From a virus, in UHGV virus genome UHGV-0161432: a stretch of 32,622 nucleotides of DNA; one strand, given 5' to 3'. This document shows, piece after piece, positions 546-32,622 of this stretch (position 1 is its first letter; each line of letters opens with the position of its first letter). A model generated the notes under the pieces. That model had not been told where the DNA came from and did no database searches. It worked only from the letters and a program-made list of their open reading frames with translations. The position numbers were made by a program, and so were the translations under genes.

Positions 546-728
546 ATGAACGCTAAAGACTACACCGCAACGGTGGAGCAGTACGCGGAACGCTGGCACC
601 TCAACGTGCAAACGGTACGCAGATACTGCCGCGAGAAACGACTGCCCTACATCAAGGTAGGCCACCGCTACTACTTCAACCCCGACATCACACCACTACC
701 GGTAGGAGAAACAATCAACGATGAATGA
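546..728 (+). CDS. Excisionase-like/HTH_17 DNA-binding protein (Cro-like position), probably leaderless
   Basis: TVEQYAERWHLNVQTVRRYCREKRLPYIKVGHRYYF matches the MerR/Xis-type HTH pattern. Confidence 0.8.
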   Translation: MNAKDYTATVEQYAERWHLNVQTVRRYCREKRLPYIKVGHRYYFNPDITPLPVGETINDE

Positions 729-4740: not shown

Positions 4741-6122
4741 ACAAACCCGAGCCTACTATTCTCAATAAGGCTCGGGTTTCCCCGAGTGAAGACCAGACTA
4801 TTGAGAATCGCGCGCACATTATGGAACAAAACGGAACATTCAACCTCGTAATCCCCAAAGCATACGAAGACCTATTGTTCTTCCTCCATGACCGTGACAA
4901 TCCGCCATACCGCTACTACGACTACAGCGGAGGCCGTTCGAGCGCGAAAAGCACCAGCGTAGCCCTAGCACTAGCACTCGAAGCCAGCATGTACCCCACC
5001 CGCATCCTATGCACCCGCGAATTCCAGAACAGCATTCAGGAAAGCGTCAAACAGCTCCTAGCAGACATCATCAACCGCTACGAACTTCCCGGCTTCACCA
5101 TCACCCGCGAACAAATAACCCACGTGAACGGCAGTGTGTTCTGGTTCAAAGGCCTGCACGAAGACCCCGAAAGCACGTTGAAAGGCATCGAAGGCGTAGA
5201 CCGATGCTGGATAGAAGAAGCGCAGTTCATCACCGACCACAGCCTAGACGTGTTACTGCCGACCATCCGAAAGAACGGCAGCACCATCATCTTCACCCGC
5301 AACCCACTGACCCCGGAAGATTCGATAACCACACGTTTCGTCACCCACCCCAGCAAGCTCACCCAACAGCGCACCACCCACCACCACACCACATGGCGAG
5401 ATGCCGAACAGGCCGGAATACTCCCGGAAGAAATACTGCGACAAGTCGAGGAATCACGAAACAACCCAGACTTCGCCCACATCTGGGAGGGAATGCCATA
5501 CGAGAAAACCATCAACCAGATCATAAGCTGGCAGCAACTCACGGCAGCGACCGAACGCCAACCGCAAACAGACGGCGGCGTAAGCTTCGGCGTTGACGTG
5601 GCCCGATACGGAGCCGACCGAACCGCCGTAGCCATCGTAAAGGGACGCTACCTAGTAGACCTCGTGAGCTGGAGCAAGACCAGTCTTGTCGAAACAGCGG
5701 AACGCATAATCACCCTTGCCGGAACACATCATCCAAGCATCATCAACGTGGACGATACCGGCGTAGGCGGAGGCGTAACGGACATTCTCCGCAGCCGAAA
5801 CCAACCAGTGAACGGCGTCAACTTCGGAGCCAAACCCAAGCACCCCGACCGTTACCCGGCAGTCAGTTCGGAACTATGGTTCGAGTTCGCCGAACAGCTT
5901 CCGGAAATCACCATCAACCCGAATCTGGAACACCGAGCCGAACTGTTTCAGGAACTCAGCACCCGCGAATGGATGATCAACAACCGGAACCTACGCGAAG
6001 TGCAGCGGAAGAAAGATTACAAAACAGAGAACCAGACCGGTAGCCCCGATCTAGCGGATAGCGTCCTTCTCGCATACTACAAGCCGCTGCAACTCCCCTC
6101 ATGGGACGTAGCGGTCTGCTAG
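4737..6122 (+). CDS. terL: Terminase large subunit, PBSX/SPP1-like (start 4737 GTG or 4821 ATG)
   Basis: Walker A-like GGRSSAKS, CTREFQNSIQES, Walker B CWIEEAQ, nuclease GVDVARYGADRT and SPDLADS. Confidence 0.95.
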   Translation: MNKPEPTILNKARVSPSEDQTIENRAHIMEQNGTFNLVIPKAYEDLLFFLHDRDNPPYRYYDYSGGRSSAKSTSVALALALEASMYPTRILCTREFQNSIQESVKQLLADIINRYELPGFTITREQITHVNGSVFWFKGLHEDPESTLKGIEGVDRCWIEEAQFITDHSLDVLLPTIRKNGSTIIFTRNPLTPEDSITTRFVTHPSKLTQQRTTHHHTTWRDAEQAGILPEEILRQVEESRNNPDFAHIWEGMPYEKTINQIISWQQLTAATERQPQTDGGVSFGVDVARYGADRTAVAIVKGRYLVDLVSWSKTSLVETAERIITLAGTHHPSIINVDDTGVGGGVTDILRSRNQPVNGVNFGAKPKHPDRYPAVSSELWFEFAEQLPEITINPNLEHRAELFQELSTREWMINNRNLREVQRKKDYKTENQTGSPDLADSVLLAYYKPLQLPSWDVAVC

Positions 6123-13219: not shown

Positions 13220-13327
13220 ATGAGCATAAGTAACGCCCTCCACCAGAATTGTGGGTGTCGGGCGCAGTTGAGAGAGAATGTTCCTAGAAGGGGAACAGTC
13301 ACATGATATCACATGATTGGAGCAATA

Positions 13328-13681
13328 ATGACCACACCGGTTTTGAGCATCGACACCCGCGAATCGTTCCGCACCCTCACCGTGAAAATCGACGGTACGG
13401 TGTACACCATGCGTCCTCTTGGCTCTAAGGACATGCTCACGATCTTGGATAATGCGGAGACGATTGACAAGCTGAGCGCTGGCGTGGCGAACCGTGAGAC
13501 TTTGGAAATCGCGGAAAAGATTATTTTCCCGCTAGTTGAATCGCTTATGAGTCCAGCTGATAAATTCTCCGAGTGGGCTGAACAGATCCGTAAGCGTAGC
13601 GACCTTGCCTATCAGCGTGCCATGACCGCGTTGTGCGGGCTTATGGCGAAGAACATCACGGTTGACATCAAGGGCGAATAA
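13328..13681 (+). CDS. Tail assembly chaperone (G-like)
   Basis: Between MTP and TMP; SD GGAG. Confidence 0.7.
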   Translation: MTTPVLSIDTRESFRTLTVKIDGTVYTMRPLGSKDMLTILDNAETIDKLSAGVANRETLEIAEKIIFPLVESLMSPADKFSEWAEQIRKRSDLAYQRAMTALCGLMAKNITVDIKGE

Positions 13682-23613: not shown

Positions 23614-24039
23614 ATGTTCGCAACATTCCAAACCATCATCAACGCCGGAGGCTACGACCTCGCAGACCTCACCGAGCGCATCAAGACCATGTATGCGACG
23701 GGCGAACTCACCGAGGAGGAGATGAAGCAGCTCCTCGGACAGGCACAGGACAACGCCAAGCCCGACGATTCCTACGCCCCGTTGGTCGACCGTGTGAAGG
23801 CCATTGAGGAATGGGAGACGACCGTCGAGAAGCGTTTAAGCAAACTGGAAACCGGTTCGTTGACCGGCACCGAGGAACCAGCCGACGAGTGGCCCGAGTA
23901 CGTGCAGCCGACGGGAGCGCACGACGCCTACCACGTGGGCGACAAAATCGCCTACAACGGGAAGCACTACACGTGTGTGATGGACGGCTGTGTGTGGACT
24001 CCTGATACTTACCCGCAGGGGTGGCGTGAGGAAGCGTGA
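23614..24039 (+). CDS. Tail-associated protein with C-terminal CBM5/12-like (chitin-binding-type) domain
   Basis: WPEYVQPTGAHDAYHVGDKIAYNGKHYTC...WTPDTYPQGW. Confidence 0.8.
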   Translation: MFATFQTIINAGGYDLADLTERIKTMYATGELTEEEMKQLLGQAQDNAKPDDSYAPLVDRVKAIEEWETTVEKRLSKLETGSLTGTEEPADEWPEYVQPTGAHDAYHVGDKIAYNGKHYTCVMDGCVWTPDTYPQGWREEA

Positions 24040-24059
24040 AACGCCTCTATTCAAAGTGG

Positions 24060-24157
24060 TAGACTGGTGTTGCTCCTTTCGAGCGATGGTGTGATGACCA
24101 ATTGAATTAGCCCGGCACTGGTCTTGATGACTGGTGTCGGGCTGATTCTTTTTTTTT
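24060..24157 (+). ncRNA. Candidate sRNA with anti-SD hairpin, from its -10 box to the terminator
   Basis: TAGACT (24060-24065); GCTC-CTTTC-GAGC hairpin; sequence complementary to early gene leaders; intrinsic terminator at the 3' end. Confidence 0.5.
24105..24157 (+). terminator. Rho-independent terminator at the convergence of the two genome arms
   Basis: AATTAGCCCGGCACTGGTC-TTGAT-GACTGGTGTCGGGCTGATT followed by C and T9. Confidence 0.9.
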
Positions 24158-24485
24158 AGTTGGTTAAGAGCAATTTTTTGTCTCGGTATTCGCTGAATAC
24201 CGGAACGTTTTCTGGGTGGTCGTTGTAGGCGCTGACCAGCCAACCGTTCTCATACGATTCTTTCGGATGCTGGTGGATACGCCCGTGGCATCCCATTGTT
24301 CCCGACCCGCACACGGTAATCAGGTTGCTGGGTAGGTTCAATCCTTCCCAAGCGTGGGAGCGCATACGCCTATGATGCAGGTTGAACGCGGAGGCGCTTA
24401 ACGTTTTCCCGCAGATGAAGCATCTGCCGTGGTCTCGGTGGAACACCTTCATACGGGTTTCGATGTCAGGATCGGTCTTGCTCAT
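24156..24485 (-). CDS. HNH endonuclease
   Basis: RDHGRCFICG...HHRRMRS...NLITVCGSGTMGCHGRIH. Confidence 0.9.
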   Translation of the reverse strand: MSKTDPDIETRMKVFHRDHGRCFICGKTLSASAFNLHHRRMRSHAWEGLNLPSNLITVCGSGTMGCHGRIHQHPKESYENGWLVSAYNDHPENVPVFSEYRDKKLLLTN

Positions 24486-24789
24486 CGAACACTCCCGTGC
24501 AGTGGAAGAAATACAGATTAACCGGAGCGACCAGACGGAACGTGTATTGTTTCGAATTCCCGAATTCTGATTCGCGTATTGGTGTGGTTTCCACTGGTGT
24601 GGTTTCCACTCCTTCGATACTGTTGAGGACTTCGTGGACTCGTAGGAGCGAGTCGGGGTCTTTGAAGCCTATCTGTCCGAACGTGAGTTCCTGCCCGAGT
24701 CCTTGGTTGTCGATGATTTGTTGGAGTTCCGGTTTCTTCAGTAGGAGGTTGATGATTGAGGTCAGGTAGTGAACGGTGTCGTTTTCCAT
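24466..24789 (-). CDS. Hypothetical protein (MENDTVHYL...)
   Basis: Strong SD AAAGGAG before ATG 24789. Confidence 0.75.
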   Translation of the reverse strand: MENDTVHYLTSIINLLLKKPELQQIIDNQGLGQELTFGQIGFKDPDSLLRVHEVLNSIEGVETTPVETTPIRESEFGNSKQYTFRLVAPVNLYFFHCTGVFDEQDRS

Positions 24790-24836
24790 TGTTGCTCCTT
24801 TGGTGTGATGATGATTGGGGTTAATGGTGCAGACTT

Positions 24837-25166: not shown

Positions 25167-25182
25167 GTTTCACCTCCCTACA

Positions 25183-25223
25183 ATGTGATATATATATTAT
25201 ATCACATGGTTTGTGTTTCGCCA
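25183..25223 (-). promoter_or_regulatory. Sigma-A promoter with overlapping palindromic operator
   Basis: TTGGCG-17-TATAAT on - strand; palindrome ATGTGATATA-TATAT-TATATCACAT (25183-25207). Confidence 0.8.
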
Positions 25224-28448: not shown

Positions 28449-28473
28449 CTCAAGGCCCTTTCTGATAGTGTGA

Positions 28474-28512
28474 TGATATATAAAGTATATCACATGTTGT
28501 GTGATATTACAA
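28474..28512 (-). promoter_or_regulatory. Sigma-A promoter with palindromic operator upstream of ERF
   Basis: TTGTAA-17-TATACT; TGATATA-TAAAG-TATATCA. Confidence 0.75.
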
Positions 28513-29324: not shown

Positions 29325-29366
29325 TTCGATACTCCTTGTTTATGGAATAGATCAAGCCTTATTGCT

Positions 29367-29405
29367 TGATATATTTATTATATCACATTGTGTCTTGTGA
29401 TGCAA
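29367..29405 (-). promoter_or_regulatory. Sigma-A promoter with palindromic operator
   Basis: TTGCAT-17-TATAAT; TGATATA-TTTAT-TATATCA. Confidence 0.8.
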
Positions 29406-32043: not shown

Positions 32044-32063
32044 ATGCATCCTTTCTATGCAAT

Positions 32064-32105
32064 GTGTGATATATATATTATATCATACTGTTAGTTCTGT
32101 GGCAA
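32064..32105 (-). promoter_or_regulatory. Sigma-A promoter with palindromic operator driving the DUF488-tRNA-MTase-ParB operon
   Basis: TTGCCA-17-TATAAT; TGATATA-TATAT-TATATCA. Confidence 0.8.
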
Positions 32106-32622
32106 ATTGCCACCATTCTCAACGTCAGGAAAGAACTCACGCTCCAGAGCCTCCACGCCACCGGTGGCACCCCAATACGCACGCCTCGCCCTCAGAACCG
32201 TCTCCACGTCCGCAGACATGGAATCAGGAAGCCTCCTAGCCATCCAATTCGACAACTGCGCTTCACTGCGCTGATCCCGCTTCTGCCCCCTCCAATTAAC
32301 CGAGTTGGCCAGCCACACGGGCAGAGTCCGCACATACTGCAATGGCGTACCCTCGCAGGACTCCACGAAACGTTTCGCCGCCCTCATAAGCGCATCGGCA
32401 CCAACCTCATCGAACGCCTGATTGAAGCACTGAATGAATCCGTTGGACACCCTGCATTTTTTCGGCCACAATTCCATGAGCGCATTGAGCGTATCCACCG
32501 AATGGCAGGCGACTGTGATTTTTTCTTCGCCGCGCGAGTATTGTTCTTGGGTTTTGTTCTTCTGGGTATTGTTAGTCAAAACCTCGTTTTGGGGTAGGTC
32601 AAAAGCAGGTTTTGAGGGGTCA
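32091..32622 (-). CDS. Phage replication initiator, C-terminal part
   Basis: In frame with 1..377 through PAFDPSK repeats into ...LPQNEVLTNNTQKNKTQEQYSR. Contains the track ORF 32091..32579. Confidence 0.85.
   Translation of the reverse strand, partial: DPSKPAFDLPQNEVLTNNTQKNKTQEQYSRGEEKITVACHSVDTLNALMELWPKKCRVSNGFIQCFNQAFDEVGADALMRAAKRFVESCEGTPLQYVRTLPVWLANSVNWRGQKRDQRSEAQLSNWMARRLPDSMSADVETVLRARRAYWGATGGVEALEREFFPDVENGGNLPQN
32578..32622. repeat. Iteron copies and 21-nt terminal overlap (32602-32622 = 1-21)
   Basis: aaagcaggttttgaggggtca is identical at both ends, with a degenerate copy aaaacctcgttttggggtagg just before. Confidence 0.85.

Follow-up and report, generated by a model that had tools for sequence, protein, structure and literature searches.

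The window analysed here, 32,622 nucleotides (32.6 kb), is the whole genome of a tailed phage, broken within a repeat. Head, tail and lysis genes fill the + strand up to 24039, and recombination, DNA-modification and regulatory genes lie on the − strand down to 24156. The late and early operons converge on a gap of 116 nt that separates the HNH gene from the last late gene (Table 1). Within this gap, the segment 24057-24157 is a strongly conserved, uncatalogued element, and very probably it constitutes a small-RNA gene. An Rfam cmscan search of the whole window at E values up to 1 returned 0 matches among 4227 families, and literature searches, whose coverage lay outside subscription journals, yielded no description of this RNA.

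Table 1. Positions of the element, its neighbours, the predicted target leaders and a comparison locus in phage Adephagia
Feature	Position	Strand	Remarks
Extended −10 promoter, TG-n-TAGACT, of predicted sRNA	24057..24065	+	signature in 71/71 sequences
Predicted sRNA, 86 nt	24072..24157	+	start placed from spacing; no Rfam match
Hairpin 1, GCUC-CUUUC-GAGC, anti-SD loop	24072..24084	+	99% of cells paired; one-sided changes only
Hairpin 2, UGGU-GUGAUG-ACCA, loop complementary to CAUCAC leader motif	24087..24100	+	fold prediction
Intrinsic terminator, U tract on + only	24104..24157	+	20 pairs; 96% of cells paired
Last late gene (CBM_5_12 domain)	23614..24039	+	other genes in its place in relatives
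HNH endonuclease, last early gene	24156..24485	−	end meets terminator tail
orf24789, 107 aa, no known family	24466..24789	−	weak nucleotidyltransferase-like fold resemblance
TCATCACACC-AAAGGAGC leader of orf24789, best predicted target	24794..24811	−	family binding −17.3 kcal/mol
Leader of ERF recombinase (gene 28448-27855), predicted target	28457..28476	−	−17.0 kcal/mol, z −5.3
Leader of DUF488 gene, operon head, predicted target	32050..32070	−	−15.4 kcal/mol, z −3.7; overlaps promoter inverted repeat
CATCACACCA...AGGAG leader of ssb (721-1179), predicted target	686..708	+	−15.1 kcal/mol, z −5.2
XRE promoter, TGTGATATA..TATATCACA inverted repeat and ATCACA leader	25173..25207	−	−8.0 kcal/mol, z −3.6
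ATCACA..GGAGC leader of putative tail assembly chaperone	13308..13323	+	motif in TGATATCA palindrome
Adephagia reversed-SAS hairpin	L289 30579-30715 = Adephagia 58578-58714		prediction

The original prediction for this locus had described a TAGACT −10 hexamer, a TGTTGCTCCTTT-CGAGCGAT-GGTGTGATGA series and a strong terminator, and all three were found in place. TAGACT occupies 24060-24065 with TG at 24057-24058, the series runs from 24068 to 24097, and the terminator stem (24104-24148) is followed by nine T up to 24157. Besides the copy at the element, the window has four further copies of GTAGACT: three precede the portal, Dit and holin genes, and one is located within a gene. In the case of Dit, the ATG stands 6 nt past GTAGACT. 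Both Dit (16082, +) and the gene before the large terminase (terS; 4366, +) are apparently leaderless, with an ATG 6 nt past TAGACT and TAAAAT, respectively. Given this spacing, the transcript of the predicted sRNA likely starts at G24072, and TGTT would therefore probably lie outside the primary RNA. The same sequence minus 8 nt had been reported at 24790-24811, before the ATG at 24789; it is indeed present there, and the likely start makes the match one of 8+10 nt.

The predicted sRNA folds with an energy of −44.6 kcal/mol (z −8.8), which is mostly the contribution of the terminator; the 5′ 32 nt alone give a z of −2.4. The loops CUUUC and GUGAUG each have a predicted unpaired probability of 1.00, and the proposal that an anti-Shine-Dalgarno (anti-SD) CUUUC is exposed in a GCUC/GAGC loop is thus borne out by the predicted fold. 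The + strand fold was more stable than that of the − strand in 58 of 63 distinct copies. Some further features of the segment were observed. No SD accompanies the Met-Val-stop frame at 24086-24094. Unusually high conservation marks the terminator tip (24118-24132, CTGGTCTTGA[TC]GACT), whose CUUGAU is complementary to the ATCAAG that starts variable-gene leaders (e.g. at 29370); the interior of the terminator hairpin is inverted in one relative (L252), which argues against a strict role for the tip. Three other relatives (L011 at 4780-4860, L053 and L058) carry an extra hairpin between the seed hairpins and the terminator, with TTGAT near its tip.

Conservation was assessed with the HNH endonuclease as the query. 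Of the 71 IMG/VR loci recovered, 70 reach the site, and these together with the window form the conservation set; the element is present in 70/70. The promoter signature TG[GA]TA[GCT]ACT is separated from the core by 6 nt in 69 sequences and by 7 nt in two, and its variable bases are the free positions of the extended −10 and the spacer. Conservation begins at the −10, with at least six different upstream gene ends among relatives, in some of which the TG of the −10 comes from the holin stop codon. The core is identical in 62/71. Across 69 distinct segments with a median identity of 88%, the mean majority conservation of the 28-nt 5′ part (24072-24099) was 0.994, compared with 0.80-0.88 at the third codon positions of three neighbouring genes and 0.87-0.97 at their first and second positions. 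To avoid HNH-based selection, the search was repeated with the exonuclease as query, giving 74 loci that lie largely on the same contigs; the element was found in 61/61 of the IMG/VR loci so selected that span the junction. It was also found in 33 of the 36 metagenome loci spanning the junction (50 of 56 examined), and the three misses were distant relatives. Many of the loci L001-L071 carry a second TCTACACTGG copy ∼20 nt upstream of the −10, which suggests that the variable last late gene was inserted via a duplicated promoter segment.

The structure itself was compared in an alignment from which L011, L053 and L058 were excluded for their inserted hairpin. It was retained in 97% of cells, in the two small hairpins via one-sided changes only. 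No two-sided change was seen in these hairpins, and covariation was not above that of shuffles (49 of 500). Read on the − strand, the segment presents a perfect SD that no start codon follows, as had been noted originally. Among 103 copies (some contigs being counted in both collections), none has an ATG within 12 nt past this SD, and 11 have a GTG there, which corresponds to the −10 in its TACACT form, read in reverse. A minus-strand gene at the element was found in none of the relatives.

The sequence facing loop 2 recurs before genes elsewhere in the window. Among 48 curated starts, seven have ATCACA[CT] at a distance of 13-40 nt upstream, where 0.34 would be expected (P 5e-8), and the motif has one further copy, in the element. 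The commonest hexamers in the leader zone are ATCACA, TCATCA and CATCAC, all within the complement of loop 2. When net binding energy was calculated for the 48 leaders of the window, the top five were those of ERF, gene 13313/13328, ssb, orf24789 and DUF488. Against 200 control RNAs in which the anti-SD hairpin was kept and the middle shuffled, only 1-7 controls were as good for DUF488, ERF, ssb, 28858 and orf24789. A family test was then applied to 30 leader families, with up to eight distinct leaders each and 25 controls keeping the anti-SD hairpin. The orf24789, ERF, DUF488 and ssb families bound at −15 to −17 kcal/mol and beat 25/25 controls; all controls were likewise beaten by the families of tail gene 18116 (−12.6 kcal/mol, z −3.7) and XRE (−8.0), and not by those of 28858 and 3090. 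Raw duplex energy alone does not single out targets: in a genome-wide scan, 10 other windows outscored the best target, and one leader of a relative that lacks the element (L260) binds at −20.3 kcal/mol.

On these grounds, the best-supported candidate targets are the leaders of orf24789, ERF, DUF488 and ssb. The original list is thereby altered. Its ERF, DUF488 and 28858 matches are all present, and those of ERF and DUF488 beat their controls; that of 28858 does not hold at the family level, where 4/25 controls are as good (6/200 in the window) and the motif occurs in 4/15. AAGGAGCAA does stand before genes 3090 and 10569, as claimed, but both match via the SD only, and as many as 45/200 and 141/200 controls, respectively, are as good. 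The ssb leader is an addition. Tail gene 18116 passed the energy test and was set aside, as its motif is disrupted by synonymous changes.

Of the 71 sequences, 64 share an identical 18-nt orf24789 leader, whose conservation is 0.99 versus 0.83 in the 25 nt upstream. The protein has 413 homologues, the best 120 of which share 65-97% identity with it. A search with its first 102 residues gave no PHROGs, Pfam or Atlas match. Its structural model (pLDDT 83) finds one uncharacterised viral relative only in Foldseek, and a VIA search returned nucleotidyltransferase-fold rows (Z at most 7.3, rmsd 3.0, 89 aligned residues) that are below kinship level; the canonical DxD motif was not seen in the alignment. 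The ERF leader, probably the 5′ end of the ERF mRNA, keeps the motif in 58/62 distinct leaders. The motif also survives in eight distinct leaders in which the upstream promoter half has been replaced, seven of which keep a TATAT[AG]TC run. The ssb leader sits inside the last codons of an HTH_17 gene and its synonymous sites are fixed, which is weak evidence given that 16/30 of the three- and fourfold degenerate sites of the overlapping gene are equally fixed.

The remaining motif-bearing leaders are less clear. For XRE, 46/200 window controls were as good, and its standing as a target is weak or ambiguous. Gene 13328, with a likely start at 13328, is a putative tail assembly chaperone by position; its leader is an ambiguous target, and since this gene is late, a restriction of the motif to early genes is not clean. 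In four of the seven leaders (XRE, ERF, DUF488 and 13328), ATCACA doubles as one half of a TGATAT..ATATCA palindrome, possibly a site for a protein. Applied to DUF488, XRE and ERF, the 6-nt spacing would place the mRNA 5′ ends at the motif or immediately upstream of it. Four early promoters on the − strand (25186-25207, 28472-28495, 29365-29388 and 32064-32087) have in common a TG-TATAAT/TATACT −10 that lies within an inverted repeat, TGTGATATA..TATATCA, likely an operator; the XRE gene (25166-24837) lies behind one of them. The operon 32043-29438 (−), headed by the DUF488 leader, encodes DUF488, a DAM-like/GNAT fusion and a ParB_N protein and is probably a DNA-modification module.

A sister clade provides a natural comparison. 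Its member L260 (exonuclease 63%) and 12 further loci carry a homologue of orf24789, and those read in detail keep the gene order. All 13 are without the element, the holin stop being followed directly by a terminator. The DNA of the 12 loci keeps the promoter inverted repeat but has no two-part leader motif, and L260 lacks a stricter form of that motif. Similarly, phage BlindUri1 has only a terminator at the junction, and ATCACA[CT] at 0/46 starts. Thus, the joint absence in the sister clade suggests that the element and the leader motif were gained or lost together, which would be a single evolutionary event and not covariation. Covariation between sRNA and target was not detected among the relatives, as both the RNA and the leader are nearly invariant. 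In about half of the sister loci (within L277-L288), TG[AG]TATGGT stands just before the terminator, a possible promoter for a hairpin-only RNA; it is not conserved in the rest.

The near-invariance of the element, its promoter signature, its complementarity to leaders and the joint absence in the sister clade together argue for an anti-leader sRNA. We consider it probable, short of confident, that the predicted 86-nt RNA pairs in trans with several leaders of its own phage and lowers their translation. The proposal of a trans-acting anti-SD sRNA is therefore upheld as regards a conserved + strand element with loops complementary to leaders, and revised as regards its targets. Host RNA polymerase would start at G24072 from the extended −10, and read-through from the late operon, which would also end at this terminator, would add copies. 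Loop 2 (GUGAUG) would touch the mRNA first, at a CAUCAC located at its 5′ end or close to it, and so confer specificity, while loop 1 (CUUUC) would contact the SD. Opening of the 4-bp stems would then allow a duplex of 18-25 bp to form across the site where the 30S subunit binds, on the mRNAs of orf24789, ERF, the DUF488 operon and ssb. The RNA would probably accumulate late and damp recombination, replication and DNA-modification genes, and this is the least certain step.

Late expression is suggested by the sharing of GTAGACT with late genes and by the end of the late operon at this terminator. The earlier description of a late RNA is thus supported only indirectly, by the sequence common to the portal, Dit and holin genes, and is qualified by 7/71 copies that carry TGATATACT, the hexamer context of the early ERF promoter. 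Two RNA runs from one study (share 0.05) contain contigs of a related phage and are silent on strand, ends and level. Maintenance of a quiescent state, the other role originally envisaged, is unsupported: in three long relative contigs, the genome is flanked by other phage-like DNA and no chromosomal flanks were found, and no integrase was found among the 48 proteins scanned. If the anti-leader reading is true, one small RNA turns the genes behind several leaders down together, so that early-gene shut-off in this phage clade of the human gut, whose hosts are probably bifidobacteria, would gain a layer of control by RNA. Actinobacteria, the probable host group, are not known to have Hfq.

Essentially a single target would be left if the RNA were real and simply an antisense to orf24789 (perhaps ERF) derived from a leader duplication, with the other matches arising as side effects of the promoter inverted repeat and of leaders rich in C and A. 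Such a restricted role is rather unlikely. It draws on the fact that only orf24789 matches over 18 contiguous target bases, which are 0.99 conserved and have no palindrome context, that the XRE, DUF488, ERF and tail-chaperone motifs overlap TATATCA, and that binding energies of such size arise by chance. However, the 8-nt middle that orf24789 leaves unused is equally conserved and has predicted pairing with the ERF and DUF488 leaders, and the sister clade keeps the inverted repeat without the two-part motif.

Alternatively, the main targets could be host mRNAs (e.g. of defence or translation), reached through the anti-SD loop and the G/U-rich seed, and the phage leaders would then match because one of them gave rise to the RNA. 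Loop 1 does repeat 8 nt of the actinomycete 16S rRNA 3′ end (CUCCUUUC of hairpin 1, also found there in genome G353), an unchanging external target would also explain the invariance, and phage sRNAs with host targets are known, PreS and VpdS being described in the parts of a review available (PMC12197685). We regard this as improbable, given that the leader in the phage itself shows the same invariance as the RNA, and a host target would not call for that.

Distinctly improbable is an action of the motif as DNA, in which TGTGAT would be a half-site for a phage regulator (e.g. the XRE protein of 25166-24837) and the copy at 24088-24097 would control a promoter or stall transcription at the point of convergence. 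The overlap of TGTGATATA..TATATCA inverted repeats with four early promoters, and the TGTGAT common to them and the element, speak for such a site, which nevertheless leaves unexplained the invariant anti-SD hairpin, the fixed −10 spacing, the + strand preference (58/63) and the single half fixed just before the SD at orf24789 and ssb. Least of all is to be expected of a functionless remnant, whether the vestigial leader of a deleted − strand gene named in the original prediction or a direct repeat left by insertion of an orf24789-HNH block: on the minus strand, the element repeats the orf24789 leader directly at a distance of 700 nt, with an HNH gene in between, and in sister loci the repeat is missing and no gene separates the orf24789 homologue from the terminator, but the 0.994 conservation of the element exceeds that of its neighbours' first and second codon positions and 0/103 copies have an ATG past the SD, with no relative having a gene there, so that this reading appears largely refuted by conservation.

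The trans-acting anti-leader sRNA may be compared with several known systems. The C4 RNA controls the icd-ant antirepressor operon, and no antirepressor family was found among the 48 proteins scanned here. In the available parts of the account of C4 antisense RNA of the P1/P7 immI region, it is ∼77 nt long and its loops act trans-like, one partly covering the RBS and one specific for an upstream sequence (PMC5320573). The present element is of similar size, with two predicted loops directed against the RBS and upstream leader sequence. It differs from C4, as described in those parts, in having a predicted fold that begins with GCU and consists of two separate 4-bp hairpins plus a terminator, in place of a three-stem fold with an RNase P GGW site at the 5′ stem, and a predicted promoter and primary 5′ end of its own in place of RNase P processing. 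It is also convergent to its targets, which would be leaders of up to four transcription units, and the window has no Rfam match. Most likely, then, the element would work like P1 C4 RNA yet stand outside the C4 family.

A second parallel is offered by the start-associated sequences (SAS/ESAS) of cluster K mycobacteriophages, as presented in the available parts of two papers (PMC3203893 and PMC11373665). There, a repeated SD-containing leader motif precedes non-structural genes, in some cases with a promoter-overlapping inverted repeat; one SAS copy has the opposite orientation; and both papers, of 2011 and 2024, describe the SAS role as unknown. The start-associated repeats (seven), the inverted repeats at four early promoters and the one copy away from gene starts are similar here. 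Unlike SAS, whose consensus is the 13-bp GGGATAGGAGCCC, the motif here is a bipartite, degenerate ATCACA[CT]..SD, and there is no sequence kinship between the two.

Inspection of the right 31.6 kb of Adephagia revealed 16 of 17 SAS matches in the forward direction and one reversed. The reversed copy (58682-58694) is situated downstream of a TAGACT in the gap between genes 92 and 93, where late transcription is reported to start (PMC11373665), and it lies in the 10-nt loop of a long predicted hairpin. No terminator was found after this hairpin, whereas the antisense copy of the present phage has two loops and its own terminator. As a tentative extension, in which we have less than even confidence, a chaperone-free sRNA would lower a recombination, replication and DNA-modification regulon via a shared leader barcode, and the same logic, separately evolved, would explain cluster K SAS. 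With its reversed SAS in a predicted hairpin loop, Adephagia, which is in culture, makes the SAS role testable.

Among known phage RNAs, OOP and aQ of lambda and sar and sas of P22 are short molecules that inhibit translation of phage mRNA or destabilise it, and so shape development. In the review that describes them, the phage sRNAs whose targets have been identified all belong to model phages of Proteobacteria, and those directed at phage genes mostly affect one overlapping gene (PMC12197685). Unlike those RNAs, which are described there as acting on the gene opposite, the element overlaps no target leader and would pair imperfectly with several. It would resemble PreS of lambda and VpdS of VP882 in being a trans-acting phage sRNA with several targets, here predicted (PMC12197685). 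In the same partial account, PreS and VpdS are Hfq-dependent and act largely on host RNAs, whereas the long predicted duplexes here fit chaperone-free pairing. By its sequence, the element carries the features of the trans-acting sRNA class, namely an intergenic promoter and terminator signature (71/71) and a conserved seed facing non-overlapping leaders.

The closest named relatives of the phage are BlindBasel1 and BlindUri1 of Bifidobacterium asteroides (terminase 62%), and some contigs of close relatives are labelled human gut metagenome. From this kinship and these contigs, the host is probably a Bifidobacterium. DNA searches of GenBank phages gave no match, relatives being found at the protein level only, and the species genomes searched gave one weak match only. 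The plasmid collection held no close terminase, and there is therefore no sign of a recorded phage-plasmid. In two separate long contigs (L219 1-9600 and L202 1-9000), the phage's early region adjoins head genes that belong to another phage, in the same layout, representing either a hybrid phage or a repeated misassembly. Finally, 21-bp tandem repeats at 1-60 and 32580-32622 of the window, probably origin iterons, lie inside a probable replication-initiator gene that runs from 382 (−) across the genome ends to 32091.
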